Shown piece after piece: positions 4,251 to 43,027 of a stretch of 44,736 nt of DNA. The number at the start of each line of letters is the position of its first letter. The first letter of the stretch is position 1. The stretch is from the NCBI GenBank assembly GCA_030167865.1, contig JALAGF010005356.1, positions 1 through 44,736 of the forward strand, given 5' to 3'. Source of the DNA: Craspedostauros australis (Eukaryota). Under the pieces are notes generated by a model, which was given only the letters and a program-made list of their open reading frames with translations, had not been told where the DNA came from and made no database searches. Position numbers and translations under genes: made by a program.

Positions 4251-5264
4251 ATGATGAAGCCCAACAGCAACGAAGACGATCTTGACAGTGTCGAGGTGAG
4301 CACCCCGCCACAGAATCACATCGGCGAAAACAGGCCCAGCGGGCAGGGATACCCACCGGCCACGCCCACCAGCGAGTGGTACTACACGCAACAGCGCGAC
4401 GACAGCACCATCAATGTTGCCGGAACAGAGGTCGCCAACGCACAGGTCCCCATGATGGCGCAGTTTTGCTGCGCTATCCTCGTGCTGGTCGCCATCACGA
4501 CGGGCTTTGACAAGCACGAGACGAGCAACTACAGCTATGCCGTCGCCGCCTCCATCATCGCGATGATCTTTTCGCTGGCAGGGATCGTCTTCGCTGCCAC
4601 GCCTGGCCTTGGTGGGCAGATGCTCTTCTCCGCGCCGATATTGGGTTCGGTTAGCGTCGGCTACCTCAACGCCCTCTTCCTCTTCGTTTGGTGGCTGGTC
4701 GCTGCCTGCGTTCTCACCTTCGACCATCCATTCCTCATCACGGGGAACGGATACTTCGCCTCGTGGGCAGGCTTCGTCTTCAGCATCATGGGATGCGGCG
4801 TATCGGCTTCGGCCGTGCGATCGACGCTCTCCGGCGTGGGTCCGTTGCTGGGACTCGTCGGTGCCAGCGTCATCCTCATCATCGCCACACCGGAAGAGAT
4901 CGGCTCCAACCACGAGCACAACTCTGAGGCCGTCTACGCGCTCATCCTCGGCATCTTCACTCCGCTTCTCGTCCTCGTCATCCTTAATGTGGGAGACACC
5001 ACCTCGACCGTCGGGCCCATGAAGCTGCCCATCCTCGTCATCCTCTCGATCCTGTGGGTCGTCATGGCATCGCTGGTCACCTTCCGCGGGCCCTTCAAGG
5101 ACACCGGCAACGGCTACTTCGCCGCCTGGGCTGGTGCCGGCATGTGCCTCTTGGCAACCCACCAAACGCGCGTCACGGCCAATGCCAACGATATGACGCA
5201 GATCCGCCAGACCAACAGCACGGACACGGCAGACACGGCAGAGGATGACGTCGTCCGGGTCTAA
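4251..5264 (+). CDS. Multi-pass membrane protein (337 aa) with two internal repeats ending in PF..TGNGYFA.W; MARVEL-like topology, function unknown
   Basis: Intact ORF with strong C-ending codon bias and roughly 7-8 hydrophobic helices. Duplicated motif WLVAACVLTFDHPFLITGNGYFASWAG / WVVMASLVTFRGPFKDTGNGYFAAWAG. Confidence 0.8.
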   Translation: MMKPNSNEDDLDSVEVSTPPQNHIGENRPSGQGYPPATPTSEWYYTQQRDDSTINVAGTEVANAQVPMMAQFCCAILVLVAITTGFDKHETSNYSYAVAASIIAMIFSLAGIVFAATPGLGGQMLFSAPILGSVSVGYLNALFLFVWWLVAACVLTFDHPFLITGNGYFASWAGFVFSIMGCGVSASAVRSTLSGVGPLLGLVGASVILIIATPEEIGSNHEHNSEAVYALILGIFTPLLVLVILNVGDTTSTVGPMKLPILVILSILWVVMASLVTFRGPFKDTGNGYFAAWAGAGMCLLATHQTRVTANANDMTQIRQTNSTDTADTAEDDVVRV

Positions 5265-7386
5265 CCGCGTCCCGGATCATCGGCATGTCCAGTGGTACCG
5301 GACAGCCCGTATCATACTGGTACCATGCACAGGTTTACCAATGTACGTCATTCATTCTTTGGCACAAGAGAATAATCGATGAAACAACTGAATTAGTGAG
5401 CACTCGGCCATACCAATGCGGAAGGTCACGACGAACAATCAAAGACAACATGCCAACAGCCGGACACCCCAGCAATGCAACGCGCACGCAGCAGATCTAA
5501 CCGGAACAGGTCGGCGCGAGAAGCAAGGCAGCTGGTCCAACCCAAGCCGCAACTCCAGGAGCGCTAGTGCATCCGTCCATGTGATCAACTTGATCGGCGG
5601 CTGCATTTATTGGCGCACACAAAAATCTATAACATGTATAGTATTCTACAATACTCGAATCATGTCATCCCCAACTGATTCCAGCGTCTGCGTCGCCTGT
5701 AGTTGGCACGATGGCTCACAGCTGGGACAGCGCAGGGTGCCGCACTGCCTTGACTGTTGGATGTTCCTCACCCAAAACGAAGCCGTTGGTTTACCATGTA
5801 CGAGGACGAGCCATTATCCTTTTGGAAGAAGACGCAATCCCCTTGGCATTCTGTCGTTGGGCGCCAGGAGCTGATTCGTCGTGAGCTGCGCACGAGCAGA
5901 AAACCAAGATGCAGTCTCACTTCCGACAAGTACGAATACGAGTATCCACATGTTTGTACATGAATGAGCCTCGGATCATTTGTCTGCTTCTCGTCGCCTC
6001 TGCCATGCTATGCCGAAGGACGTGTCTCTCAAAGGTAGCACGGCACAAAGGCTGCGCGAGCTTCGTCGCCACCAGTGCTCCTCTAGCTCGCCTCTCGCAA
6101 GTTTGCATCGTTTTCTACACTCGATCCCCTTGCAACTAGGTCTTGTTCGTATTGACTGATCTGACCTCGTTTTTCTCGACCAGATGGAATGATTCCCAAA
6201 AGCATGACCGGCGAGCGAGAACAGAACCGGTCGAATCTGAGGCCCAAGGGAGATACTTCGGGGCCATCAGCGAGAATCTTGGCTGGTGAGGGAGTACCCA
6301 AGACCAAACAGAAGGGAAGTCACAAACGCTCATCGCGTGAGAAACCCCACGGCGAAGTATTTCTCGCTCCGGTGTCATCGATCCCGAATGACGCTTTTCT
6401 GATGAATCAATTCCCAGGCTGTTGATGGCATCATCGCCGCCATCATCTTTTGTCAATGTCGGAAGTGCAGTGAGAAGGGAGGAAAGTGCCATGACAGTTG
6501 GAGTGCACCACCTGATGTCTCCCAGGCCACCCATTCCCATCAAACGCGTCTGCGGGAACTTCGAAATGTCAGAATGAATACTATGAGCATGAACATAGAA
6601 AGAAGGCATCGACCACTGATCGATGCACTATCACATGGGTCCAACATGAGGATGGAGCACACAATCACCTCCAACCATCAACCGCATTATTTGAATGAGC
6701 GTGCGCTGCACTTTGGACTAGCTAGCAGCTTGAATCAAATCTAACAACACACGGAACAGATGGATGGATGATGACATGGAGGGCATTTTGTCGCGTCTGT
6801 CCGTCTGTTCCGGCGAGCTTCGCAGAACATGGTGGTCCCAACATCCGTAATGAGTTCTCCGCAGGAATTCGCCAGGCGAAAAAGATGTGTGGTCTTTTTC
6901 ATTCGCAAACCGTTGGGGTGGTTCGTCGTTGGCTTGTGCCTGATTTCTCGTGTTGTTTTTGTTCTTCGTGAGTTTTCCTCCTTTCTCCTCTTCCAGTCCG
7001 GGCAGGTCGATGTCTTTGGTGTTGGGATGCGAGAATGAGTGAGGACAAGAGGGCGTCGACGTCGTGCATTTGCGAAAGTGACACCACGCCGCATTGCCCA
7101 GAACCGCAATCGCGCAACCGCACAACCTGGGCGACCACGCACCCAACCAACGTCAAAGCCATCGCAATTCCATCCGAACGCACATAATTCCTTGATTGCG
7201 CAAACTGCTTGCACATCACAAGGTCGCCTCGTCTCACACTGCAAATCACGTCAAGGGAATCTGTCACCAGCATCGCCATCATCATCACCATCTCGAGAGT
7301 GACACCTCCAGGCACCTTCCCCGCTACGACCGTTCCCATCATCCGAAACGGCTTCGCCACAACAGCGACGACAACACTTTCTCACC

Positions 7387-10300
7387 ATGAAGTTCTCCTT
7401 GATGCCATCGGCCCTGACCGGCCTCATCATGGCCAGCGGCATCCTCAACAAGCAGGAGGCCGGACTGATCGCCGAAGCCGCCACGGCCACAGCCGGCGAA
7501 ACGACCATGGAGGATCTGCTGGCCAACGGCGATCTACCAGAGAACTCAGCCGTCTTCAAGCACTTCGTCGCCATGCATGACACGCACACCTGCGTGGGCG
7601 ATGAGCACGCCTTTCCCTTCAACAATCAGATCCGGGGAGTCAACCTCGGAGGGTGGATGGTCCTGGAGCCATGGATCACCCCTTCTCTCTTCTACCAATT
7701 CCTCGGGGGCAAGAAACACAACACCGCCATGGACAGCTACACCTTCTGCCAAGTCCTGGGCAAGGAGGAGGCCAACCGCCAGCTGAAGCGCCATTGGGAG
7801 ACGTGGGTCACGGAGGACCACATCAAGGAACTGGCGAAGAGCGGCAACATCAACTCGCTGCGTCTTCCCGTCGGTGACTACATGTTCAGGCCATACGGCC
7901 CATACGGTACGTACCATGCAACTGCTCGCTCTCTTACAGCCCGTCGCATTGCGCGCCCTTTTTTGCCTTTGCTTTCCCGCATGTTATTTTCATTATTGTT
8001 CCTTTGTTGGAGTTGGAGTTGGTGATGTGTCGAAACTAACCCGCCATGTGTCTGTCATAAATTCCTACATTCCCGCCCACCATTTCCATGCCCACTTTCG
8101 CACATGCCCCCAAATGTAAAACACAAATGCCAATGCCAACGGCTTTGCAATGGCCCTTCGTCGTCTCGCGTCTGTCTTGGTTTGCCTACCCTCTTCTCGT
8201 TTGCTTCACCTTTCCTAACCAACCGATCGACCAATCAATCGATAAATTGGCCGACCACCCAACGTATTGTATCATCCATCCCATCCCACCCAATCTATTG
8301 TACAATCTACAGTCTCTGAAACTTCAGCGACGCTGGGCAGAGACATCAGCTGCTGGGATGGAGCGTTGGATTACGTCGACCAGGTCCTCGAATGGGCCTA
8401 CGAATACGGACTGTCCGTCCTCATCGACATCCATGCCATGAAGGACAGCCAGAATGGCTTCGATAACTCCGGACAGGCCATGGGCTTGGAGTGGACCGCC
8501 CAGTTCGGCGAAGAAACCTTCCAGCATTGGCCAATCCGCAAGGCGCAGTGGATGGGCGAATTCGATCCAGAAAGCAAGACGTATCCCGTCATCAATCACG
8601 ACAACATCGACCACGCCTTGGATGTCATCAGCCTCATCGCCCAGCGCTGGGGCGATCATCCAGCCGTTCTTGGGCTGGAGCCAATCAACGAACCGTGGGA
8701 ACTCACGCCCATCGAGGAATTGAAGCAGTTCTATTGGGAAGGATACCTCCGCGTCAAGGAACATGCACCAAGATGGAAGTACATTATCCACGATTCCTTC
8801 CGTTTGGATCCAGAAATTTGGGGAGGATTCATGGCTGGGTAAGTATGGCACCATGCTCCTGTTCTGTCTTCTTTGAATGATTGAATACGTGAATTTCCGG
8901 ATGTGCGGATGCACAAGATGAAATGAAACTGGATGGAGCAGAATGCGCCGATCTACGAGTCTGCCTTGGCTTGAATGTCGCGCCCCCAAAGCATCAAGAG
9001 CTTCACTCACTCAAACTTCGTCTCATTCATGCATTCATTCATTCATGTTCGCACTCTCCCCATTTTCTTCATTTGACGCGATCTGATACTGTACGCAACA
9101 AATTGATACACTGCAATGCAATCACTGTTGCATTGTACCGATGCATTCTATCCCCCTCCCCCAATCATTTTCACATCCGCACGCATCTTTGCCAACGCAG
9201 CTGCCCCGACCGTGCCATGGATGCTCACATTTACCAGGCATGGGACAAGGAAACCAGCAGACTCAAGTTTTACAACGAAGCCTGTGGCATGAAGGGAAAG
9301 CTCGCGGCCATTGAAGACGCTTTCGGTCCCGTCGTTCTTGGCGAATGGTCCCTTGCCACAGACAACTGCGCCATGTGGCTCAACGGATTCAACGACAATC
9401 TTCCTGGATACCCAACCTTCCCGTGCAAATATGTCGAGTGCTCCGCTCCCTACATGGGGCTCGAGCAACCAGGCACACCAGTGGACACCACAAAGGGATT
9501 GCAAGGTCCCTTCGGCACAGCTGGATTGTCCGGCCCAATCTACGGCTTCTGCCCCATCGAACGTGACTGGTACAAGGAAGGACCACACACAATGGAGACT
9601 GGGCAAGGCAAGATCAAGGAATCCGCAGAAGCGCCACCGGAGCTGAGAGACACAGACAACGTGATGAAGAATCTCTACCGCAAGAAAATGCATTCCTTGA
9701 CCACCGTGTCACACGGTCACTACTTCTGGAACTTCCGAACGGATCTGCAAGAGCCTGCGTGGAGCTACCTTTTGGCCATGGAGAGGGGTTGGATTCCACG
9801 CAAGAGTGAGCAGTTCGTCGACATCGAGCATGCATGCGCCAAGGAGGATCTTGGGCTCTTCGTCTGCACACTGAAAGAAGAAGCTTCGGCAAAGAACATC
9901 ATCGGAGCGCTGCAGTACATTGACTACGTCAACAACAAGGACCTTCCACCGGAGGATGTTATCGAGGTTGCATATGACGTCAACGACCCCAATCTTATCG
10001 AAAGCACAGGGGCCAACCAGAGAATCGATGATTTCTTCCAGGCTCATCGCCTGGAGGGTGCCACGTGTGATTTTGGCGGCATCGCTCTGCTCGTGGAAGA
10101 GAACAAAACGTTCTACCCATCCATGGCACCGACCATGCCACCGGGCTATGGACCATCCGGCCCGAGCCCCGTCGAGATGCTCGTCATCGTCCTGGTCGCT
10201 GTCATTTGCGGGTTCCTTGTCGGATTCGTCGTGGCCATGCGCTGCAGTCCAGGCTTCAACCAGCACGTGCGTGGCACTAAGTGGTTCAAGCCAATCACCA

Positions 10301-10886: not shown

Positions 10887-13595
10887 TCACTCTTCGATAT
10901 CTGCGGCCTTCAAGCTCCATTCTGTGGCGCTCTTCATCTTGCCATCCGCAATGGCACGGTCGGCTGCCTGCTGGTACAGCATGGCCGCTTCGGTCTTGTT
11001 GCCGTGCTCGGCCTTGAGATCTGCCAACTCGGCCTGCAGCTGGTAGACTGGGATCATGCATTTGTCATCGGAGCTTTCACAGCCGAGTGCCTCTTCATCG
11101 GACAAAGGTCCTCCCAAATTGGTCTGCGTGGCGGTGGGCGGGATCAGGGGACGGACCTGGCTAGTGTCCAGCGTTTCAGTGGAACCATCGTCATCGTATT
11201 GAATCGTGATGCGACCATCGTCTGCATGAACGTCGACAATGGTGCCAGGATAAAACGAGCCCTCGAGGGCATAGTTGCCCTCCGCTCTGTCCCCGACAGC
11301 CACGATTTTCGCGTGGCAGCTTTTCTTTTCACGTTCCTGATGCTTCTGCCTCTCCTCGTCTTCCTCCTCCATGGCGTAGATGTGCTTCAGGGTATCCTCC
11401 AGCACCTCCATGAGGACCTTCGGCGAGGCGGCGTGCGTGCCACCCTTCTCCATGGCGATGTGCTGTCCTTCATCCAGCAGGATCTGGTAGAGGAGACAGC
11501 CGGCCGCTGCCTTGGGACCGGCTGGAGGGTACGGCGATTGCATGGCGCGCCGCAGAAACTCCTTGGACGCGTCAAAGTCGATGGGGACGATGTCCCGCAA
11601 CAGATCGGACACGACCGAATCCAATCCGGAATGGATGCGTCCGAATGCCAGGCAGGCCGGGACGTTGTGCAAGGACGCCGCATGCGACAGATGGAAGAGA
11701 ACGGAGAAGCTGTCGTGGGAGGGTTGATCCTCGGCATCGTTCTGATCTTTGCTGCTGGTGTTGCTGTTGCTGCGATCATTCTGGCTGTTAAGATTGTCGT
11801 CATGGTTGTGATTGCCGTCACCTGGAGACGCATCGTCCGCGGACTCTTGGATTGCCGGATGGGCATGTGGCACGATCTCTGGGAATCGTCCCATGCCATG
11901 CAACACGGCCAGCTGATAGTGCACCTTGCCCAAGTTGATTCGCGTTTCGTCGGTGGGAACGATGGGATCAGAGATCCTGCGTATAAGTAGGCTGCGTCGC
12001 CGGCGTGGCTTGCGGTCGGTTTCAGAGGTGTTGCTCGTCGTGGAATCACTGCGAGAAAGGGCAAGATCGTCGATGTGGCCGGGTCTGCCTCTGCCACTGT
12101 GTGTTTGACCGTGCTTGTTGCCAGCGTCGTCGCCGGTACCATCACCGACGTCATCGCCATCGGCATCACTGCTCACGCCGCTGCTGGCGCTTCTGCTGTA
12201 CAGCAACTCTCCCGATTCCTTGCGGTTGTACAGCGTCCTGTCAAACTTGAAGTCCTTCTTGGCACGGTCCAAACAGAGCTTGACTTCATCCACGTCCGAT
12301 GCGGTTCGATGCAGGATCATCTTCTTCCTGGCGGGCACGGGTGATTTGGGGACCGCCTTCTCCATGCAGCGCTTCAACGTGAGCTGCACATCCTCTCGCA
12401 TGGTGACGTTGGAACGCCTCTCCGTCTTGCGATCTTCTTCGGGCCGCAGCGCGTTGAGATCGAACGGCATCTGCAGCGCGCTGCATCGTCGCTGACGATT
12501 CTGATCCAACCTGGCAAAGTTGTTGTTGGTGTCAAGCTCGCTGCTGCCGTCCATGCCATCCGCGAGATCCTTGGCGGAGGATGCGTCCGATAACATGGAG
12601 TACACATCGTCCTCGAACTTGGCCTGGTGCTTGATTTCGTTCTTGGAGAGCGGAAAGACGGGAATGCCCAAGGCGTCCGCCAGCGAGTTGTGCCGGAAGG
12701 TCTTGAAGAAGAGGGCCATGCCGCGGGGTCCGAGATCGCCATCCCCGAATCGGTAGTCCGAGCTGAGCACCTGCGGATCGGTGAAGAGATCGCCGACGCC
12801 CTGGATGTCAGCGACGAGACGGTTGCCGGAGCTGACGTAGAAGGAGTGCGCCGAGAAGACCTGCGGCGTGACGCGGTGCAGATCCTCATCGACGAAGCCG
12901 GCGTTGGTGTTGTGCTTCGTGAAGCCGCAGCCGTAGGAATCGTGACCGGCGATGAAGCGCTCCACCGCGAACCAGGGAGATCCGGGTCTGTCGGGGAATT
13001 CGACCGCGTAGGCCCGGATGAAGACGATCTGTTTGGGCGGTTCCTGGGCGTTGAAGTGCCCCGCCCACTGCGCGGCCTCGTACTGCAGCATGATGTCGTT
13101 CTGCACCGCTGCCTTGGCCTCATCGGAGGTGTCCACCACGCCATCCTTGTGGTAGGCCTTGGCGACGTAGTTGGACGCCCTGGTCCATCCGTAGTTGTGA
13201 AAGCGATGGTTGGTGGCCGACATGGGAGGCGGGGACCTCTTCTTCATGCGGTAGCACCACCGCATGGCCCCGTGCGCGAAGGGCTGCTTCTCCATCTTGA
13301 CGATGGTCTCCTCCGTGTGCCACGTGCGCGTGTGGGGATGGTACAGATGGCGGATGATGCGCTCGGCAGGGATCTTCTCCATGTGGTGCTTGCACCATGG
13401 ATCTCCCTCTGCGACAGCCAGGCTGGCCGCGTGCTTCAGCAGGCCGATCAGCCTCTCTCGTGCCGGCGACGATGACGGCTGCGACGATGGCTGTGGCTTT
13501 GCCGTCCCTGTCTCCTTGGCTCCCACCGACGTCACCACGGGATCTGCTCCGCCTCCTTCCGCCTCCAGCGGCTCAGCCACCACTCGCGACTCCAT
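10887..13595 (-). CDS. EEF2K: Eukaryotic elongation factor 2 kinase-like alpha-kinase (902 aa) with SEL1-like helices and an inserted Tudor-like domain
   Basis: DPW..H.E.I..ER..RH.Y segment. Alpha-kinase motifs PFAHGAMRWCY, YVAKAY, VERFI.G...KHNTNAG, LVADIQGVGDLFTDPQ, FGDGDLG.RGM. SEL1-like LGKVHYQLAVLHGMGRF. C-terminal AAMLYQQAADRAI helix resembles the eEF2K C-terminus. Single uninterrupted ORF. Confidence 0.88.
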   Translation of the reverse strand: MESRVVAEPLEAEGGGADPVVTSVGAKETGTAKPQPSSQPSSSPARERLIGLLKHAASLAVAEGDPWCKHHMEKIPAERIIRHLYHPHTRTWHTEETIVKMEKQPFAHGAMRWCYRMKKRSPPPMSATNHRFHNYGWTRASNYVAKAYHKDGVVDTSDEAKAAVQNDIMLQYEAAQWAGHFNAQEPPKQIVFIRAYAVEFPDRPGSPWFAVERFIAGHDSYGCGFTKHNTNAGFVDEDLHRVTPQVFSAHSFYVSSGNRLVADIQGVGDLFTDPQVLSSDYRFGDGDLGPRGMALFFKTFRHNSLADALGIPVFPLSKNEIKHQAKFEDDVYSMLSDASSAKDLADGMDGSSELDTNNNFARLDQNRQRRCSALQMPFDLNALRPEEDRKTERRSNVTMREDVQLTLKRCMEKAVPKSPVPARKKMILHRTASDVDEVKLCLDRAKKDFKFDRTLYNRKESGELLYSRSASSGVSSDADGDDVGDGTGDDAGNKHGQTHSGRGRPGHIDDLALSRSDSTTSNTSETDRKPRRRRSLLIRRISDPIVPTDETRINLGKVHYQLAVLHGMGRFPEIVPHAHPAIQESADDASPGDGNHNHDDNLNSQNDRSNSNTSSKDQNDAEDQPSHDSFSVLFHLSHAASLHNVPACLAFGRIHSGLDSVVSDLLRDIVPIDFDASKEFLRRAMQSPYPPAGPKAAAGCLLYQILLDEGQHIAMEKGGTHAASPKVLMEVLEDTLKHIYAMEEEDEERQKHQEREKKSCHAKIVAVGDRAEGNYALEGSFYPGTIVDVHADDGRITIQYDDDGSTETLDTSQVRPLIPPTATQTNLGGPLSDEEALGCESSDDKCMIPVYQLQAELADLKAEHGNKTEAAMLYQQAADRAIADGKMKSATEWSLKAADIEE

Positions 13596-13601
13596 CGTGA
13601 A

Positions 13602-13669
13602 GGGTATGCCACGGATACGGGTATGCTACGGATACGGGTATGCTACGGATACGGGTATGCTACGGATAT
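13602..13669. repeat. 4 x 17-bp minisatellite (GGGTATGCTACGGATAC) immediately 5' of the alpha-kinase start codon
   Basis: Units start at 13602, 13619, 13636 and 13653, with single substitutions in units 1 and 4. Confidence 0.9.
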
Positions 13670-15403: not shown

Positions 15404-16472
15404 GGTTGATACTCGATGGTTGATACTCGATGGTCAATGCCCGATGTGCAGATTTGTGAAGTTGTGGGCGCTCCACGATTGCTCTCACGAGTATGAGCAC
15501 GACTACCAGTAGGAATACAAAGTCCTCTGGCCGTGGCGGAATCGAACCAATTGGTGCTGCAAATGGCCTTGCCTTGCCGACGTGATGGGAGGGGTGTGAA
15601 CTGGGGTCTCTCTCGTTCCTGGTTTGTTTCGAGGGGTCAATAAGTTCGGAATAATGAGACCGAAGATGACGGAAATGGTGACGATGGCAACGACAATCAA
15701 GATTACGTACTGGTGGGCGGTACAGTACTTGTTGTTTCACGGACATGCAAAAGGTCAAGTGCGGTTGTGGTGGCGTAGAAGAACTGCGGGGTGTGATCAA
15801 TGCGCATCTGCCGAGTCGAAAAAATGAGACCGAGACAGAGAGAAAGGGAGCGGTACTTGTGCGGCGATGAGCGCCGCGGAGAGAAGACAAGAACGATCGG
15901 GCAGCCTGGTCTGACTTCTGTTGTTGTTCACGGCCGCAAAACGCGTGGGGAAACAGAATGGAGTAGAGTAGGGTGGAGCAGGTAACACTCATCCAACGTA
16001 ATCCATGAAGAGCTCGGAGAACGATGCATGAGTCAACTGCTCGCGCTCATTTGCACTCGAACCAACGCATGCCGTGCACGGACTCGCCATGGGAACAAAA
16101 AGTTGACACAACCACACACTTGGAACTGACAAGTTGATGTCACAAGATTGCACAAGACGGAAAGTGCACGACCTGAGTGGGCAAGTGGAATATGCGTTCG
16201 TGTTCTGTCGTCGTTCTTCCTCTCGAAACCCGCAGTACTTCACAGGCAGTTGAGTCTCTCATGACGGAGTACCCCCCGAATAGATGAATCCACCATAAAT
16301 AAAAGTGCACGTCATTGCACAAGATCGCGACAAAACAGGTCCAAGAGCGTGCGTATGAGCGTAACATTGCTGTCGTATGATTAGGTAGAGCATTGTGCTC
16401 CACCATAGCGTAGTCCACTGACAAGGACGCCCCTTTGAGCCTCTTATGGCAGCGCGCTTGTCCTTTTGCCAA

Positions 16473-16511
16473 GGGGGGGAAGGGAAAACGGCGTTTTTTG
16501 CGAATTGCGAC
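16473..16511 (+). repeat. Left terminal inverted repeat
   Basis: gggggggaagggaaaacggcgttttttgcgaattgcgac. Confidence 0.92.
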
Positions 16512-16717
16512 GAAGGAAAACGAAAGTCGAAAAGGGATGCGGGCCACCAAATGGCGAAACATTCTTGCGTATTTTCCAAAACAACTTGTGGCATTTTTGC
16601 TCATTATCGTGTTGCGTACGGACTGCATCTTGTTTTTTTTTTGCTTTTTTCATTCTGGTCCACGGATCCTTCGCCTCTCCATGCGATTCCACACATTCGA
16701 CAGCCGCAGAGCCAGCA

Positions 16718-16767
16718 NNNNNNNNNNNNNNNNNNNNNNNNNNNNNNNNNNNNNNNNNNNNNNNNNN
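16718..16767. other. Assembly gap (50 N) flanked by an identical 56-bp sequence
   Basis: 16662-16717 is identical to 16768-16823, typical of an unmerged contig overlap. Confidence 0.9.
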
Positions 16768-16947
16768 ACGGATCCTTCGCCTCTCCATGCGATTCCACAC
16801 ATTCGACAGCCGCAGAGCCAGCATGTTCCCCTCTCTTCGAAGGGGGGTTGCAGATGTTGTTCCAACTCTCTTGCCAGTTGGCTTGTTGCATTCCATCAGC
16901 AGGATTCATCTAGTTACAACAATCAAAAGTTGCACATTCTGACTCCA

Positions 16948-19551
16948 CTATTTATGGTATGCTCGTTTGCCTTGCTGATGTGGTTTACTTGCATCACAGC
17001 GGCTCTGTCGTGCAGCCCTCCCCCGGGCCCTCATCCCAGTAGTAGCAGCCTCTCCTGGTTCTTTCTCTTTGTCATCATGCTGGTGTTGTGGTTGTTGTTC
17101 TTCCATACCTTCTTCTGCTGTTGGTGGTGGTGCTGCTGCAGGCTGCAGTGCTTGTTCCATACTTCCTTCTGCTGTCTCTCCTGTTCTTGCATCATCTTCA
17201 GGGACCGCTGCAGTTGATGCCAGTGTTGCGGTTGGCGATGGCATCCTGATTCTAGATATTTTGGCTCCTGTTGGTGATGCTGGTGATCGTGGTGATGACA
17301 TTGCCTGCGTCTCTGTTCGTGTCTCTGTTTGTGTTCTGTGATGGGCATCAACTGCCTGGGCTGGTAGGATCCATTGAGATGATGGGAGAATGCAGCTTCT
17401 CTGGCTTCTTTTATCCATGTTAGGGCGTTGGTGCATGTACTGGTCTGAACCAGCTCCCACACCTGCCACAACTGTTGCCACTGGACCTTGACAAGCTGAT
17501 CTGCATGCCAACTGGCTAGCAACATCAACCAACGCTGCATCGAGGGAGATCTCCTTGTGCTCCCACCATTTGTTGCCATTTGGGGAGACGTCAACATTGA
17601 CTTCAGGGCCACCTGCCAGGGGCACTTGTTTTGCGAGGTGGGGCTTCCTCATTTCTTGGATTTCTTCATTGACATCTCCAAACAATCTGGATCTCTGTTG
17701 CAAGGTGTCCTCCCGTGCCTGCTTTGCGTGCTTTGCCTCCACCTTGAGAGCCAGCTGAGACTCCATCATCTCAAACATTGCCCTCTGTATTTCAATGCAA
17801 TCTCTCGTTAGTTTGGTACTGTCCATCAAGACTGACATGAAATCTTCAGTGGCAGTCAGGGTTGCTGTCTGATGACTGATTACAGAAACTGTGGGCGTGG
17901 CTTGTTGGCCATGCAGCCATGGCTGCATTGCCGATGGTAGTTGTCCGTTGCTGTTGTGCAGACTGTCCCCTGCCGGCGTGGAGCAGCGACCTCCTAGGTC
18001 GATTGTGGGTTGGGGTGTTGAGGGCGTCATGTTGTTGCCAGCCATGGCAGCTGTGGTGCCGACAGTCGTGTTCCTTGTGCTCGTCATGGTGTTGTTGATG
18101 TTGTGGGTGGCAATGTCCGTGCTTCAGTTAGATGTGTTCGTTGCTTCTGTATTGCGATCCTGATGGCTTCCGTCACCATCTGTAAAGCCCAGACCATGGC
18201 ATACAGAGAAGCGCTGGGTCACACCAACATTGGTTGCTTTCTTCAAACGTACCAATATTGTAAAGATGTTGTGGGTGGCGCCATCATTATCCCTCACAAC
18301 ATGATGAAGCCAGACCACTCCTCCCAATCTTCAGCATGGTGTGTCACAGAAGATGGTGTCAATTGGAAATGGCATCGGTACCAGCATGTCGGATCGAAAC
18401 GACTCTGTGAAGTCTTCATTCCAAAACTGTTGCATATGGGCAGAGCGTTTCTGGCCTGAATCTGAGAATGGATGTCCCAACTTGTCAATGGGCATGTCGA
18501 AAATGCTTCTGTCATGACCGAAAGCGACTGGTGGTTTGCATAGCAACGTCAGGAACATCCAATGTACTCCATCCACTTTCCGACTTTCGATGGTGACCAT
18601 AGCATCATTCCTGGTTGTGCATGAAAGCATATGTAAATCCACCCCAACCATGTAATGCCTTTCACCATGGGGTCTCCACACCTGGGTTGTGTGGAAGACC
18701 TCAATGATTCGACTCTGCTAATGAAACCTTGCAACTCATTGGGACTCTGATACCTAAAAATTGTGGCCAATCTTGCGGGGATAGGGCCATAAGGGGTGGT
18801 TGTAAATCTGCTTGAGCCTGGTTTGTTGGTGGTGCCAGGGTACGCAATGTCATTGTTGGAATCAATGTCATCAATGTTGTCCGATGCTTTGTCATACCTA
18901 TCCCATGCGCTGCTGCTGCTCTCATCTGTGTCATCGGCTCCAATAGGGGGCAATGTCACCTTCATTTGATGCTTCATACATGCTGCCACGTGTCATTCGC
19001 CTGTTGGTGCTGTTCCTGTTGGTGTTGTTCCTGTTGGTTCCGCTCCTGGTGCTGTTGGTGTGGCTGTCGGTGATGTTATAACTGGTTGCAGTGTTGGTAT
19101 TGTGATTGAAGGTTGCCAACTCAGCATCATTGACTGCCGGTTCATCCAAAGGACAGATGGTGGCACTAAGCCTATGGGTTGAGATCTCGTTCTGCGTGCC
19201 ATCCTCTGCATTGGATGATGAAGAGGTGAAGGCCATATGTTGGAGTCATAGGAAAGAGAAAAAATAGATGAGAAGGCACCTGAATACAAGCAGACAAGTT
19301 CATGATGGAGCTTTGATTATGTGGCTGGGCATGCAGTACTTACGGTGAAACAAACCCTTCTTCACCAATGTCTGTTTGAACTTGCGTAGGGTCCGAACGA
19401 ACTTCTTTGCATCGTACTTGAGTAAGAACGGATGCTGCAGACGCAAAGGCACTGATTCTCAGTGCCATTTTGTGGGATCAGCCAAAAATGCCTTCATGAG
19501 TTCAGTGGCATCAGGCCCATTCTTGTAACAATGGTCATTGAAGCCCACCAT
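16948..19551 (-). pseudogene. Decayed accessory gene (ORF2) of the transposon, originally roughly 800 aa
   Basis: ORFs 18331..18681, 18124..18327 and 16948..18087 are one reading frame interrupted only by TGA codons at 18333-18331 and 18126-18124. 5' exon MVGFNDH..KWH*ESVPLRLQHPFLLKYDAKKFVRTLRKFK has a TGA at 19461-19459 and a GTAAGT donor at 19343. Apparent frameshifts near 18950 and 18700. Confidence 0.65.
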
Positions 19552-19594
19552 TGTGGAGTGTCTGCAATGTTGTGTTGTTGAATTGTTGGTTCTA

Positions 19595-19712
19595 TGTGTT
19601 GATGTGTTGATGCGTGGACGCGTGGATGTGCCAATGTGCACAAGTGTTGTTGCACCAATGTGCTGATGTACCAATGTGCAAATGTGTTGATGGGTTGATG
19701 TGTGGATGTGCG
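19595..19712. repeat. Degenerate ~8-bp tandem repeat (gtgttgat/gtgccaat-like) upstream of ORF2
   Basis: tgtgttgatgtgttgatgcgtggacgcgtggatgtgccaatgtgc...tgtgctgatgtaccaatgtgcaaatgtgttgatgggttgatgtgtggatg. Confidence 0.6.
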
Positions 19713-19983
19713 TGTGAGTGTTGCATTTTTTATTGCATGGCAACCTTGATTTGTTTTGGGCGGAACATGTGGACATTTGGGTTGATGATGCGGATATTGC
19801 TGTCATTTTCGAACACTTCTCCCTCTGTAGGCGTCATGGTCCATACAGGTACGCTGGTGCGGGGTGTTTGGTTTCTCCCATTCTTACCTCATGCAAAAAC
19901 AAACCAGCACGGTCTTGAGTTCTGCCACAATGCCAATACCTTCCCATGTGGCTATGTGGACCAATAGAAGCTGGCCCCAATGC

Positions 19984-20812
19984 ATCGCAACTTCGCACTC
20001 CAAACCATTGGTGGTGAATGACTTGGAATGTTGCCAACAGGCCATGAAGTATCGGACAATCTATTGGAGTGGTCGAATACAACAGGGTGAGTCAAGAACG
20101 AGCAAATTGCAATGTCGCATCCTGCAGCATTGGGTGTGAATGGCACGGAATGTCGCAAACAGACCATGTAGTATCGGACAATCTATTGGAGTGGTCGAAT
20201 ACAACAGGGTGAGTCAAGAACGAGCAAATCGCAATGTCGCATCCTACAGCATTGGGTGTGAATGGCACGGAATGTCACAAACAGACCATGTATTATTGGA
20301 AAATCTATTGGAGTGGTCGAATACAACCTGTGGAGTTGAGAACGAGCAAATTGCAATGTCGCATCCTGCAGCATTGGGCATGAATGACATGGAACGTCGC
20401 GAACAGACCATGCAGTATCGGACAATTAGCTGGTATGGCCGAATACAACCTGTGGAGTCGAGAACGAGCAAATTGCAATGTCGCATCCTGCAACATTGGG
20501 TGTGAATGACATGGAATGTCGCGAACAGACCATGTAGTATCGGACAATTAGCTGGTACGGCCGAATACAACCTGTGGAGTCGAGAACGAGCAAAGCACAA
20601 CTTCGCATTCCAGAGCAGTGTTCGCCGGTGACTTGGAATGTTGCGAACAGACCATGCAGTATCGGACAATTTGCCAGTACAGTCGAATACCACTTGGTGA
20701 GTCGAAACCGAGCGAATCGCAATGTCACATTCCTCAGCAGTGTTCGCCAGTGACTTGGAATGTCGTAAAAAGACCTGGCGGGATCGGACAGTCCGTTCGT
20801 GTTGTCGAACAC
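19984..20812. repeat. Tandem array A: exact 122-bp period, ~6.8 copies
   Basis: The ccatg of the (a/g)ccatg.agtatcggacaat anchor recurs at 20042, 20164, 20286, 20408, 20530 and 20652, and degenerately at 20774; every interval is 122. Confidence 0.93.
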
Positions 20813-21399
20813 GCCCTAGTTGGAATGGTCGCAACCATGTCGCACTACATCACACACTAAATAGCGTCACCGAGACCCCAAAAGGCGACATTTTGGTACA
20901 AAATGGCACTTTCAATGACGTTGATAGCGCTGATATTGTCACAAGCAGCACAACAAGCGACAAGAATGGGTCTAAGTAATGCTGTTTTTTTGTCAAGATG
21001 AACAAAAAGTCATGAATTAGTCTCAAAATCACATCAATCGGTGTAGAAAGGGGCTAACAAATGCCTGAATGTTGTTGCTTGAACCGCTCATTCTGAAACT
21101 GCTTATTCGGAACTGCAACAACCACAATGACATCCGTGGCAGATCGCGCCTTGGGGCGCAAACGGTTCAAAACTGCAGCGTCCGTACAAACCGACCAACA
21201 TGTTCGGCGAATGCGCCAAAGGCGACGCCGTGGAAACACTGTTTCCGTCCGGCCAACGCAGAAAAAAAGGCATAAATGAGAACATGTTCCACGATTCGAG
21301 GGCGAGATGGAAAAAACGGTGCAAATGTCCGAGTGAAACAGTCACAGCCGAAATTTGCACACGACGAATAAATGTGACAAAGCGCTCCCGGTCTTCGTC

Positions 21400-22490
21400 C
21401 ATGTCTGTGTGTGCCGGGTCTTTTTCATTCGCTACGATTTAGCCTGTCTGTGCTTGCTGATGTTGCACGTCTGACAACTCGGTTCGTTAAGCCCCTGTTT
21501 GTTGCGACGGTGCTGCACGGACATGACAGACACGACACGGACGATAACAACAACATCACGCGCGCAACATCAGACACGGTGCTCGTCTGTGTCTGTGTCT
21601 GTGTCTGTTTGTGCCGGTCTCTTTTGTTCGTTGCGATTTAGGCTGTCTGTGCTTGCTGATGTTGCGCGTCTGACAACTCGGTTCGACAAGCCCCTGTTTG
21701 TTGCGACGGTGCTGCACGGACATGACAGACACGACAGACACGACAGACACGACACGCACGATAACAACAACATCACGCGCGCAACATTGAACGCGTGCCA
21801 TCAGTCTGTGTGTGCCGGTCTCTTTCGTTCGTGACGATTTAGCTTGTCTGTCTGTGCTTGCTGATGCTACGCGCCTGACAACTCGGTACGATCATCCCTG
21901 TTTGTTGCGACGGTGCTGCGCGGACATGACAGACACGACACGCACGATAACAACAACATCACGCGCGCAACATCCGACATGGTCTTCTTGGTCTTCGTCT
22001 GTCTGTGTTTACCAGTCTCTTTCGTTCGTTACGATTTAGGCTGTCTGTGCTTGCTGATGTTGGGCGCCTGACAACTCGGTACGATCACCCCTGTTTGTTG
22101 CGACGGTACTGGTCTACATGACAGACACGACACGCACGAAACAAAAACATCGCTCGCGCAACATCGATCGCACACCATCAGACACAGTCCTCCTGATCTT
22201 CGTCTGTTTCCGTGTCCGTGTCCGTGTGTACCAGTCTTTTTGGTTCGTTGTGATGTAGCCTGTCTGTCTGTGTTTGCTGATGCCGCGCGTCTGACAGGTC
22301 GGTACGATCAGCCCTGTTTGTTGCGACCGTATTGGTCTACATGACAGACACGACACGCACGATAACAACAACATCGATCGCACACCATCAGACACAGTCC
22401 TCCTGCTCTTTGTCCGTGTCTGTGTGTACCAGTCTTTTTGGTTTGTTACGATTTAGCCTGTCTGTCCGTACTTGTTGATGTTACACATGT
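21400..22490. repeat. Tandem array B: ~200-bp period, 5 full copies plus a degenerate sixth
   Basis: Anchor gat(t/g)tag at 21436, 21635, 21836, 22033, 22252 and 22450 (intervals 199, 201, 197, 219, 198). Conserved blocks include ccctgtttgttgcgac and acatgacagacacgacacg. Confidence 0.93.
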
Positions 22491-22851
22491 GACTACTTGG
22501 CATGGTCGGCCCTGTGTGCCATGACTCCATACCCGGTTTGTTTCAGCAATACTGCACGGACGTGCGACCCACGTACAGAATTGCGCAGGCACAATCAAAC
22601 ACAACATGTCCAATCCTCCTCTGTGTCTGTGTATGCAAGTCGTTTTGTGCCAGTTCAACATGACATGGACAGCCAAGGGAAACGAGCCAAACAACATGCT
22701 AAATTGTGCATGTCATTGTGTGTTCAGAACAAATCAACAATAGCAGCGCTTGCCCTGTTTGTTTTACTCTCTCTGTTGCTGAAATTGATGTTTCACTGGT
22801 AGGTGTCACATTTTTGTCCTCCATCCTGATGGTATACCAAGATACATCAGA

Positions 22852-23892
22852 ATGGCATCAGAGACAACAGAGACAACCATTGCAGGCATGGGCATGGAGC
22901 TTCTGGGACAAGCAATTGATCCTGGACTCCAGACTTCACCATCATATAGTGTGCAAACATGTGTCCGAAGCAACCTTGGAACACACACACAAGTGGTGGC
23001 AATGGCATGGGACAGACTGAATGAGAAGGACTTACTGCCTTGTAATGCAACAATGGAGCACCTGCTGTGCACTCTAATGTTCTGAAACAATATCCAACAT
23101 GGGGAGTGCTGGCAGGACAAATGGGAAAGGATGTGAAAACTGTACGGAAGTGGACACGGATTTTTCTTTGTGCATTGGGACTCCTCAGCCGTGAACTTGT
23201 AAGTGGCATGACGTTGGTACATCAACAGCCGGACTGCAACATACACAATGCAATTGATGAGCCACATGCTGTATCTCTCACAATCTCTGTATTTTCCAAT
23301 GTTGCCAGGTGTTGATCCTATCCCAGATATGCTTTGAAGATCGGAAAATGGAATGTGCACAAGGAGCATCAAACATGGCATCCGTAGATGGCACGGACTT
23401 CTCCATCATAGAGCCTACATTGTATGACCCAGGCTGGTATTCCCACAAATTCCAAGCTGTGAGTCTCGGATACAAAACCTGCATTTCCATTGCAAAAGGG
23501 CACCTTGTGTGGGTGGACGGACCGTATCCATGTGGGGAGTGGCCGGACATCAGGATTTATTGAGAGAAGCTCCTACATTCATTGGATTCTTCCAAGAAGG
23601 TTGTTGCGGACTGAGGGTACAGAGGTGAGTCTAACTTCTGCTTGGATCGCATGCAACGCAATGGCATGATTTGTGCATGCCATGAAGCTGTATATAAAAA
23701 AGGTTCAAGAACTGGAAGTGCCTGAAGCAAAAATGGCGGCACTGTTTGGATAAGCACCAGTATGCAATGTACACGGTTGCTGCAATCACGCAATTGGAAC
23801 TGAAACATACGAATCAGCTGTTTAACCTCACCCAAACGATGGGGATCATCCAAGAGATGGATGATTGGTTGGATTCCCTGGTGGAACCGTAG
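22852..23892 (+). pseudogene. DDE transposase pseudogene (DDE_Tnp_4 / PIF-Harbinger / IS5-like)
   Basis: HLLCTLMF/LKQYP (frameshift ~23082), HTH-like KDVKTVRKW, intron 23199-23326 (GTAAGT..CCCAG, phase 0). Then SVDGTDF, WYSHKF, WVDGPYPCGEWPDIRIY*, VVAD*GYRG, CACHEAV, a frameshift in the A-run 23696-23701, and RFKNWKCLKQKWRH..KH..VAAITQL to TAG 23890-23892. The D-D-E triad is recognisable. Confidence 0.9.
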
Positions 23893-23966
23893 GAATAAAC
23901 AATAACCACATGCAAGAAACTACGATGCTCTAGAATAGAAACAACAAGCGCTGTTCAGTCTATTTG

Positions 23967-24839
23967 TCACTGTAATTGCTGGAAACAAACTGCAGTTGGC
24001 TGCACCAACCGAGAACGTATCCCAGGACGAACCAAGGTGGTCTGGAGGAACGATCCTGGTCTCGAAAGGTAAAGACAAGGACAAGGACAAGACCAAGGAA
24101 GAGGAGAAGCAACAGCGGCATGAAGCACTTTGTATGCAATCATGATTGCGTTGTTGACAAACACATGGAAGAACAAGAAGAAGCAGCTTGTATGACATAA
24201 GAACAACAACCATGTATAATACCAGGTAGTTTTGGACTCCTGCATCGAACAAGTCTGGCACATCATCTGGCCATCAAGGTCCGTGGGGATTGGGCCGAGC
24301 ATCTTGTCAAACCTCTCTGCATCCTGATGCAAGCCAACACTATGCCAGAAGGCAGCATCTGCATATCAACCGATGCCATCAAGGAGTCTTGGCAAGGAGC
24401 GGGCTGGGACGGCCTGATATGGACTGCATGGTTGGTGGAGTGGAGAAAGCACGGCCCCAACCCTACTGGGTCATTGGAGCGCCAGAAACCCTTCCACTGG
24501 CAAACCAGAGTGACTCACACACTGTAGCAGGTGGCACTACAATAGTGATCGAGCCGAAATCACAAGCTCCACAAAGAAGGCAAGCGCGGCATCATGCCAC
24601 AGAGCATGGATGCCGATTGCTAAGCCTTTGTAGAGCTGCCTCAAAGATCTATGCATTCCCACCCTGTGTAAGCTTGGTCAGCACCTACCAGGAACCCAGC
24701 CAAGGAGAGCAGAGTGACTGCTAGCTGTGACACATGGCAAGCCGCATACGGAGGCCATAGTTTCTTCAGAGCATCCAGCATAGCTGCACCATGCACCATC
24801 TGCACCCAACATCCTCCAGCGTGACCACACGCCCAGCAT
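23967..24839 (-). pseudogene. Probable third decayed ORF of the transposon, convergent with the transposase; no recognisable family
   Basis: One frame of ~291 codons with only four internal stops (TGA 24680, TAG 24539, TGA 24473, TGA 24368). Protein-like text: HRSLRQLYKGLAIGIHALWHDAALAFFVELVISARSLL...YADAAFWHSVGLHQDAERFDKMLG. Confidence 0.35.
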
Positions 24840-25350
24840 GCCAGGCAGGAGTCACTGCAAGGGCAGCTGGCGCCGCCACGCGTGTCTCTTGTATGTACAT
24901 TGTATATGTACCAGCATACACAATTGTATGCAACCACACGGCAAGGCAAGACCTGCCAACGTTATCCGTTCACACTAAATGACTTATGTGGAATAAACGA
25001 GGCGGTACGAAAGCAGCTGCAGCACATGGTTATGGATTATAGTCTATATGGTACAACAACAACAGAAAAAGAACTGTACACAGCATGCATGGGGAGGAAG
25101 AGAGAAGCAACTTGCATTGTCAGTATGGTAGGCTGGAGTATTATTAGTTGCTACAGGGAGGACCATGTTGAAGTGTGGATGGAAATTACGGACGAAGTCG
25201 AGATGGATGATGGGCTTGTTGTCCCAAGTCTGAGAACAGTGACAAATACACGAGGAAAGTAACAGTGAATCTTATGAAATGGGTGATTCGAACGAAGAGC
25301 AAGGAAATTTGGAAAATGGCAACAATGGACCCACTTTCTATTCTTTCTGA

Positions 25351-25389
25351 GTCGCGATTCGAAAAAAACGCCGTTTTCCCTTCCCCCCC
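25351..25389 (-). repeat. Right terminal inverted repeat
   Basis: Reverse complement gggggggaagggaaaacggcgtttttttcgaatcgcgac; 2 mismatches to the left TIR. Confidence 0.92.
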
Positions 25390-26850
25390 CAAGGGAAAGC
25401 CGGCTTCTCGCGAATCCCGAGACGCCCCCATCAGTCGTTCTTCCCATCACTACAATGACGTCAGTGTTCATTGACAACAACTCGTGACTTTGGGTACCGC
25501 GCAAGTCTCATCTGTCCGATGTGCGCAAAGAGATCTGCCATGAGATCCAGCACACACTCAGAGAACACGCCGGTACTTCCGGCATGGCAGGTGTCGCGGC
25601 TCGTGCATCTACTCGTTGTCGGGTCTTGCCCAAGTCGCAATAGGTAGGTTCCTTTCCGGCAACAGCATTTGTACCATCATGCAGGTGTACCGGGAGCACA
25701 AAGCCTGCCCGATGTGGACATCATGTGCGAGGAGTGGCGAATGCGAGAGGTGGGTGGCGTTCCTGGTTGATGTTGAAAGAGTCCCAGAGTGCCTGGTACA
25801 ACAATGAGGACCAGAACAGGGTAGGGCAGATAACTCGTACTCGACTCTATTGTGGATACGGCATTCTCGCGAATGATAGTGGGAAAAGTTCGCAGTCGAT
25901 GACGAGATGTGGCTCTGTCTCTCTGTCTCCATTGGTAGAGAGCGAGTACGTTGAACTGCCGCGTAGTGCTCACGGCAAAAAGATGAGAGAGCAACAGCAA
26001 CACACACCAATGCCAGCAAGTTGGTGGTGACGATGTCGCGCCGAGATCGAGTCCATGAGTCTGTCGACCGAAGCCGCCAGCGTACCATACCTGTATCTAC
26101 GGGTATACTCGTGTGTATACTGGAGCACAGCACATTGAGTCCGAACGGTAATACTACCACCACACACTGCTGCATATGAGGAATTGTACGACTAGGGCAG
26201 AATGTTGCAGAGTATGGCACCATAGTACGGAGAGTAGATCGCATATTACGAGGTTCGTCAAAGCTATCTCTCTTTGAGGTTGATCGTGGTGGAACATAAA
26301 TCTACGGCGTCTGGGTTTGGCACCGTGAATGGTGGCGAAACTGGGCCTCGACGACTATTCTGCTCGTGCAAGTACTCGTAGGTATTATGGAATACATGCT
26401 TCTTCAACTGGAGTAGTGGTGCGAGTCGAGTGCACAATGTTCTTGGCGGTACCGCTGATACCTCCGTGACGAATTCGCGCACCATTCAGCATCATCGAGG
26501 TTGATCAAATACGTGGCGAGCTGGCTTGGTTCGTTGTCGTGCCATCTTCCACGGAACGAAACGACCCTGGAAAGTTCGGTGTACCAGAGTCCTTGTCGCG
26601 AATCGATACATGGATGCATCGCTTGAGCCATTCGTCAATGACGAAAAGTGCTGTCCGAACATCCTCTCTCCGGGATCTAAGCGGACTTTCCACGACATCA
26701 ACCATTCTGCGTGTACCAAAGATCCGCCTGTCGTCCTTCTGGCGGTTCCTCCGCATGGTTCCTTTTGGGTGGTGCAGTCACATCTTCGCTGCGCACGAGT
26801 ATGAGTGGTACCATCCTCTTCGGAGAACACGAGCGTGCATGCGATGAAGG

Positions 26851-42315: not shown

Positions 42316-42955
42316 ATGGGTCGAACGGAGGGATGTGTAGAACAAAGAAGAGTGCGAACAAAACAGAACGGCAACAATAGAACAATAGTATAATAGCAGA
42401 GTAGTAGCACACGACACGCTGTCAATCATGGAACGCATCACTTGTATTATGTTATTAGATCTGCCGTCAGAGGAGCAGGGACTGCGGGATCGAATGATAG
42501 AAGAGCGCTCTGCCAAGCACATAAGAATGCGCTGTATGACGGGCAGTCGCGGCATCAATGCGTTCCACATCGCACACCAGGGAATGGACGATCTATTCCA
42601 TAGAATGCCACTTCTGCGACTGCTACCATGATACGATGTTCCGATTACAAACAATCGCCAGTGGGAGAGGGTATTGCAGTTGGTCGCATACCACAGCGTA
42701 CCAAACGAGTAGAACAGTCGACGCATTTATTCACATTTACCGCACACCATGTCTAACCTGGCTAGCATGTACCAGCACCATCGTCAACGATCTACACTTG
42801 GCCTTCAGGGACACTCGGCAGAAAGTCGGGAGTTGCTACAACCGGTAACGTGTTAAGTAACATAATATCATGATATTATGAATTGGTCATACATCATTGC
42901 TGCGTATTGCGTCAATTACTCCCTTGAGAGAACCTTGAGTCGTAACAGAGAAACT

Positions 42956-43027
42956 CCCGACATTCCCGACAAAGCTCCCGACATTCCCGACAAAGCACCC
43001 GACATTCCCGACAATCCCGACATTCCT
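42956..43027. repeat. Seven CCCGACA motifs in a 9/12-bp alternating (21-bp higher-order) array
   Basis: Motif starts at 42956, 42965, 42977, 42986, 42998, 43007 and 43016. Confidence 0.85.

Follow-up and report, generated by a model that had tools for sequence, protein, structure and literature searches.

A decayed PIF/Harbinger-type transposon with tandem arrays between two divergent genes in Craspedostauros australis

Contig JALAGF010005356.1 of the Craspedostauros australis assembly GCA_030167865.1 was analysed on its forward strand from position 1 to position 44,736, and this whole stretch of 44,736 nucleotides is referred to here as the window. Positions 16470–25392 hold an element of 8,923 bp as assembled, a figure that includes a gap of 50 N. 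The element is bounded by terminal inverted repeats (TIRs) and a 3-bp target-site duplication. Between these ends lie, from left to right, a broken gene on the minus strand, a non-coding block of tandem arrays and unique sequence, a broken transposase gene on the plus strand, and a right arm of decayed sequence. We consider it likely that the whole is one inactive copy of a PIF/Harbinger-type cut-and-paste transposon (PHIS superfamily), consisting of a broken transposase, a broken partner gene and an array-rich middle. An initial annotation, made from the letters of the sequence, had described a large Harbinger-type element with up to three genes. The layout that it proposed stands for the TIRs, the three arrays, the spacer, the plus-strand transposase and the minus-strand gene (open reading frame 2, ORF2), but not for the third gene, ORF3.

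The ends of the element are clearly marked. The left TIR (16473–16518, plus strand) and the right TIR (25344–25389, minus strand) were delimited by a repeat search with a shuffle test; they are 46 nt long and 89% complementary to each other. Their outermost 27 nt match perfectly, and this core has two copies in the window, one per strand, each at an element end. A match of this kind arose in none of 100 dinucleotide shuffles. When the two ends are compared by eye, 37 of the first 39 positions agree, in keeping with the 39-bp TIRs described initially, and the repeat search extends these arms to 46 nt. The trinucleotide CAA, already recognized as a duplication, abuts both TIRs and is identical at 16470–16472 and 25390–25392 on direct reading. 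The fourth base differs, which sets the length of the duplication at 3 bp; three bases would agree by chance in 1 of 64 cases. Both subterminal regions also contain the 10-mer ATTTTCCAAA (at about 16560 and about 25310), which faces inward some 90 and 70 nt from the respective ends. By our own estimate, about 0.02 shared 10-mers would be expected here by chance, and ATTTTCCAAA is a candidate binding site. A 20-nt inverted pair around the transposase alone (22743 and 24571) was rejected, as it lies at noise level and its flanks do not match.

The left arm carries an assembly gap (50 N at 16718–16767) within the interval 16662–16823. The 56 bp on one side of the gap (16662–16717) are duplicated on the other (16768–16823) with 100% identity. 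The gap and its flanking duplicate are probably a scaffolding artefact or an unclosed scaffold join, so that up to 106 bp at this position may be artefactual, or sequence may have been lost. Because of this gap, the true length of the element is uncertain.

The transposase, placed on the plus strand in the initial annotation, was located at 22849–23893. Exon 1 (22849–23198), which covers the N-terminal region, was delimited by frame reading and carries a frameshift near 23080; the segment 23112–23216 matches the N-terminal exon of a metagenomic relative, L002. Exon 1 would be followed by a GT-AG intron of 110 nt in phase 0 (23199–23308), read from the sequence, with its junction at the point where the two exons of the relatives meet. 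Exon 2 (23309–23893) encodes the DDE_Tnp_4 catalytic domain, as judged by alignment, Pfam, and the reading of frames and stops. It contains in-frame TGA stops at 23561 and 23612, and its frame changes in an A-run near 23690, beyond which the C-terminal third (23698–23892) aligns with the relatives in the other frame. The lesions thus amount to at least two in-frame TGA stops and two frameshifts. With at least four disabling lesions the gene is a pseudogene and the copy is dead: it cannot make a working transposase, and the element is inactive. A shuffle test found no significant open frame for the transposase on its own coding strand.

A read-through translation of 23261–23920, with TGA read as X, served as a Pfam query for the broken gene. 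The translation follows the pattern VDGTDF...WYSHKF...GP.P.G.WPDI...AD.GYRGE and matches DDE_Tnp_4 (PF13359) with 21.1 bits and an E-value of 2.5e-4 (Pfam cut-off 24.8). No Pfam family besides DDE_Tnp_4 was found in any of the frames of the element that were scanned. A word-based search identified two intact proteins of 190 aa, P0001 and P0002, which are 49–53% identical to the read-through. The catalytic aspartates are retained, the first in VDGTD and the second in AD-x-GY, and both align with those of P0001 and P0002; the catalytic glutamate is found in ...HEAV..., immediately before the frame change. A metagenome scan with the P0001/P0002 alignment as query yielded 12 loci. In tblastx comparisons, nine of these were matched by the DDE region of the window, with group E-values down to 8e-32, and apart from 23112–23216, which matches L002, no further part of the element matched any of the 12. 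The DDE exons of six of the eight intact relatives scanned exceed the Pfam cut-off (L005, 47.7 bits; P0001, 41.2; L001, 39.5; L004, 38.5; P0002, 35.4; L003, 34.3). The exon of L006 falls just below it at 24.4 bits, and that of L002 gave no match. A two-exon transposase is common to the relatives. Viral and prokaryote genome contigs, searched for relatives of the transposase, yielded none.

The Harbinger-type assignment made initially is therefore upheld by the DDE_Tnp_4 match of 21.1 bits, the identity to P0001 and P0002, the six relatives above the cut-off, the TIRs and the 3-bp duplication. According to the part of PMC4482050 on which we draw, the groups of the PHIS superfamily differ in their targets: TWA for PIF/Harbinger, AT for ISL2EU, none for Spy, ANT for Pangu, CWG for NuwaI and C|TNA|G for NuwaII. 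The present element resembles PIF/Harbinger in its DDE_Tnp_4-type transposase, the D/D/E positions, the TIRs, the 3-bp duplication and the presence of a second gene. It differs in its target, which in this one copy is CAA instead of the TWA given in that source, in a second gene without a detectable Myb/SANT domain, and in its size, since at about 8.8 kb it is twice as long as the candidate autonomous elements of about 4.1 kb mentioned there (PMC4482050). Pangu, NuwaI, NuwaII, ISL2EU and Spy have a related transposase fold family, and the first three of these groups share with the element the 3-bp duplication (same source), whereas CAA, as read from one copy only, fits the pattern of none of the five. 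For NuwaI and NuwaII, the same part of PMC4482050 describes two open reading frames, one for a transposase and the other for a Myb/SANT protein. Harbinger-like elements are known in Thalassiosira pseudonana, as stated in the portion of PMC2806351 consulted. The Harbingers of Ectocarpus, as described in the cited section of PMC12477816, have two genes arranged tail to tail, whereas the two genes here stand head to head and 3.3 kb apart. Overall, the element is a new family member of an ordinary element kind, of PIF/Harbinger type.

A transposase accompanied by a Myb/SANT partner is the canonical Harbinger layout. The gene that diverges from the transposase in the window, ORF2, has its ATG at 19551 on the minus strand. 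Its exon 1 (19344–19551) contains one TGA, at 19461, and was recognized by BLASTP and tblastn matches to the first exon of the corresponding gene in the metagenomic relative L005. It would be joined by a GT-AG intron of 64 nt (19280–19343), with a GTAAGT donor and a pyrimidine-rich CAG acceptor that link frame 0 to frame 1, to a putative exon 2 of about 777 codons (16948–19279). This second exon was delimited by frame and stop reading together with a shuffle test; TGA stops occur at about 18992, 18333 and 18126, and the reading passes from frame 1 to frame 0 within 18549–18717. In total, ORF2 comprises about 850 codons in two exons from 19551 to 16948, with four TGA stops and one frame change. 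The tail of the gene is open over 391 codons (18123–16948, minus strand). Since none of 300 dinucleotide shuffles reached a run of this length, ORF2 is a real reading frame and not a chance one. A real minus-strand frame had thus been correctly proposed at the outset, but its 391 codons form no more than the end of a broken gene about 850 codons long. The translated product has low-complexity stretches rich in Thr/Asn, Pro/Thr and Glu/Gln. A Pfam scan of the ORF2 frames gave nothing above noise, and a word-based search returned no match among 8000 scored candidates.

The relative that bears most directly on ORF2 is L005, a complete 2.5-kb element (65–2582) from a marine metagenome with 60-nt inverted ends. 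Its transposase exon is 50% identical to that of the window over 82 aa in tblastx. L005 also has a two-exon partner gene on the minus strand, divergently upstream of the transposase, and the first exons of the two divergent genes resemble each other weakly. The BLASTP alignment has an E-value of 1e-5 with 25% identity over 51 aa, and the two exons are reciprocal best tblastn matches in about 90 kb (E 0.014 and 0.076). Because exon 1 matches the divergent gene of L005, we treat ORF2 as the putative partner gene of the element, with moderate confidence. The N-terminal domain of about 50 aa common to the two proteins is predicted to be helical in an AlphaFold single-sequence model of L005 exon 1, which has a predicted local distance difference test score (pLDDT) of 55 and hence low confidence. 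A Foldseek search of this model against the PDB gave no matches, and a structure atlas search with L005 exon 1 returned only noise (top score 0.80). L005 differs from the element of the window in being compact and free of arrays, with about 100 bp between its two frames (1525 and 1641), and in a partner body unlike that of ORF2. Some 300 bp follow its transposase, which leaves no room for a third gene. Since the N-terminal exon of its transposase is missing, L005 is probably a deletion derivative.

It might be argued that ORF2 is a fragment of a host gene captured by transduplication, with no role in transposition. The gene is long and contains low-complexity stretches, and it has neither detected homologues nor a match to a DNA-binding family, all of which would suit a captured fragment. 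However, ORF2 exon 1 and the divergent gene of L005 are each other's best match and occupy the same relative position in the two elements, and the CpG depletion of ORF2 equals that of the transposase. We find host capture very improbable.

Some further observations concern L005 and the clade to which it belongs. Its partner has four close relatives in metagenomes. A second copy of the L005 family, L007 (123–1096), is 76% identical to it up to the end of the inverted repeat, where the similarity ceases. The bases next to L005 are GCG at its left end and GTG at its right, which could represent a 3-bp duplication whose two copies are set apart by a single CpG transition. In L012, positions 2093–8589 show a 65-nt inverted pair, 75% complementary, around 6.4 kb that includes a decayed relative of the transposase (7246–7906); this may be another large element of the clade that holds L005. 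A minus-strand frame of L012 (4735–5280) gave a weak match to the L005 partner, with an E-value of 0.033, and no alignment to the window. We did not count this value as homology, and the frame was set aside.

A third gene, ORF3, had been proposed in the right arm, a CpG-depleted segment of 1.45 kb between the transposase and the right TIR (23894–25343). The longest open frames here have 164 and 145 codons on the plus strand and 132 codons on the minus strand, and a frame of 164 codons was reached in 9% of 300 shuffles of the region 23921–25343. The best read-through on the minus strand has five stops in 270 codons, which is no fewer than the average stop density of the element predicts (484 stops in six frames). 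Pfam found no match in the six frames of the right arm, and an atlas search with one uninterrupted minus-strand frame produced nothing beyond noise (top score 0.81, recognition 1501). When codon usage was scored with the flanking frames as the training set, the transposase itself was not recognized, so that the score is uninformative on ORF3. Since no significant open frame is left on the coding strand of the transposase either, the right arm is compatible with a dead gene, and nothing supports one. The claim of a third gene is thus not supported: the right arm is decayed sequence in which no further gene can be demonstrated, and the supported genes number two.

Between the divergent start codons at 19551 and 22849 lie 3.3 kb filled by arrays and spacer. 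The first feature on the left, at 19604–19711, is a degenerate 8-bp periodic repeat resembling ATGTGNNN, which sits 50–160 bp upstream of the ORF2 start; Tandem Repeats Finder reports it with periods of 40 (2.7 copies) and 16, and the 8-bp periodicity was seen by eye. The 122-bp array (19984–20812) has seven units (about 6.8 copies) in exact register, with neighbouring units 85% identical. It is followed by a unique spacer of 563 bp (20813–21375) that contains no repeat, and then by the array of about 200 bp period (21376–22518), which comprises about 5.6 units of 193–223 bp that are 72–77% identical. The units of this second array contain several strongly conserved cores, and units 1–3 (21457–21787) carry an inverted pair of 15–18 nt, formed by CTGATGTTGCGCGTCTGA and its complement and spaced by about 81–99 nt. 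The central block gave no Pfam match in six frames, no Rfam family and no tRNA; it is non-coding. At its borders we found no inverted repeats that would mark a nested element, and the number of k-mers common to the arrays and the termini does not exceed the mean of the shuffles. Tandem arrays inside DNA transposons, able to seed satellites, are known as a general phenomenon. The element resembles such transposons in carrying tandem arrays inside an inverted-repeat-bounded unit; it differs in having two long-period arrays (122 and about 200 bp) side by side, rich in CpG and placed between divergent genes.

The base composition of the block sets it apart from the remainder of the element. The observed/expected ratio of CpG is 0.41 in ORF2, 0.37 in the transposase and 0.49 in the right arm, as against 1.03 in the 122-bp array, 1.18 in the spacer, 1.24 in the array of about 200 bp and about 1.0 in both flanks. 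In a sliding profile the arms (16800–19900 and 22500–25250) range from 0.2 to 0.6, compared with 1.0–1.44 over 20250–22500. Of the 11 stops in the candidate gene frames, 10 are TGA. CG methylation marks transposons in a model diatom, according to the part of PMC9998398 used here, and in this light the arms look like long-methylated DNA. Taken together, the TGA stops and the loss of more than half of the CpGs from the arms fit the deamination of methylated CpG in a silenced element, as we infer. Judged from this one copy, the centre may have been protected in the manner of a promoter island, it may originally have been far richer in CpG, or it may be younger.

The same contrast could reflect a composite origin, in which the arrays, the right arm or both are unrelated DNA picked up by an older Harbinger copy already in decay, whether by nested insertion or as a captured host satellite or gene fragment. 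If the centre had arrived later, the sharp step in CpG between 1.0–1.44 and 0.2–0.6 would be explained; L005 shows that the clade can take the form of a compact two-gene unit, and the right arm has no recognizable content. Nevertheless, the borders of the block lack inverted repeats, and its interior contains no transposon protein domain. With identities of 72–85%, the array units are old in their own right, and the right arm is depleted of CpG as the transposase is (0.49 vs 0.37), which suggests a shared history. Such an origin is a possible but rather unlikely account of the element.

Conversely, the arrays could be working parts of an undescribed diatom Harbinger lineage with an autonomous three-gene form, serving as a bidirectional promoter or enhancer or as binding sites for a protein. 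Their location exactly between the start codons at 19551 and 22849 speaks for such a role, as does the CpG-rich block between CpG-depleted arms, which would be expected if the promoter region was unmethylated; the conserved cores of the units and the inverted pairs in units 1–3 of the second array point in the same direction. A lineage of its own would also accommodate an ORF2 product that is not recognizable as a Myb/SANT protein and a target, CAA, outside the PHIS patterns in the cited part of PMC4482050. Against this stand the failure of frames, Pfam and the atlas to support ORF3, and the fact that L005, the only complete relative, is free of arrays and extends for only about 300 bp beyond its transposase. 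Moreover, k-mers common to the arrays and the termini are no more frequent than chance allows, and a single copy of the element was seen. The array units differ by 15–28%, with many differences of the CpG decay type, and so they give no sign of strong constraint. A three-gene lineage with functional arrays therefore seems quite improbable to us.

We return to the reading of the element as one inactive PIF/Harbinger-type copy with two broken genes, for which the following history may be envisaged. A live relative would encode a two-exon DDE transposase of about 330–360 aa, by analogy with the family. This enzyme would bind the G-rich inverted ends and excise the element, and reinsertion through a 3-bp staggered cut would have left CAA on both sides. 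In the silenced element, methylation of the arms would have led to CpG deamination, with TGA stops and CpG loss as the outcome. The array block would be an intergenic region native to the element, on the promoter side of its genes, which unequal exchange or slippage would have enlarged, and it would either have escaped methylation or begun very rich in CpG.

Several observations weigh against this reading. The Pfam score of the transposase itself, 21.1, is under the curated cut-off of 24.8, and the family assignment consequently leans on the relatives. The target CAA, in a single decayed copy, fits none of the six PHIS patterns given in the portion of PMC4482050 cited above. No Myb/SANT family was detected by Pfam in any frame scanned, a scope that covers the ORF2 region in its minus-strand frames, the transposase region in its plus-strand frames, and the centre and the right arm in all six, with the genes in a decayed state. 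An exhaustive phmmer search with 420 residues of ORF2 against 1.84 billion representative proteins gave no matches, and the body of ORF2 matches neither the L005 partner family (hhalign, not significant) nor the L012 frame. The decay argument is tempered as well. Of the 484 stops in the element as a whole, 300 (62%) are TGA, so the excess of TGA in the gene frames is mild. Among the 122-bp units there are many CG to TG/CA differences: when all cells in which at least one unit has CG were tallied, 51 held CG, 48 TG/CA and 34 another dinucleotide, which indicates that the centre is not fully exempt from CpG decay. Finally, the window contains no second copy of any part of the element, and a CpG-tolerant end motif of 24 nt found no matches in metagenome, genome and viral contigs.

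With respect to its surroundings, the element was probably inserted in non-coding DNA, since the reconstructed empty site has no junction-spanning frame above 128 codons. The frames in the flanks encode a DUF6824 protein, an alpha-kinase with a Tudor/Agenet domain, a protein kinase and an ATP sulfurylase. Together with the introns, this gene content is in keeping with a eukaryotic nuclear genome of diatom-like type. The first of these is an open frame at 661–1863 on the minus strand with a DUF6824 score of 77.5 bits, a domain that we take to be of diatom type. The alpha-kinase is a frame of 912 codons (10887–13625, minus strand) that scores 143 bits and has a weak C-terminal Tudor/Agenet match. 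Two minisatellites lie outside the element, one at 13602–13668 (17 bp, 3.9 copies, 98% matches) and one at 42954–43026 (21 bp, 3.6 copies, 90%). Comparison of the element with a phage collection gave no match.

In practice, the finding is an item for repeat annotation: a dead Harbinger-type element in DNA that is probably non-coding. A bolder reading, which we think unlikely, is that the copy represents an undescribed stramenopile or diatom branch of PHIS, which would combine a relaxed, non-TWA target, a large non-Myb partner with a helical N-terminus, divergent transcription from an unmethylated CpG island made of arrays, and gene bodies that are methylated and decaying. If intact copies were to conserve both ORF2 and the CpG-rich arrays, the element would be a Harbinger variant with a non-Myb partner. 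If this were true, it would also provide a compact natural unmethylated island within a methylated diatom transposon, which would be useful for the study of methylation targeting.

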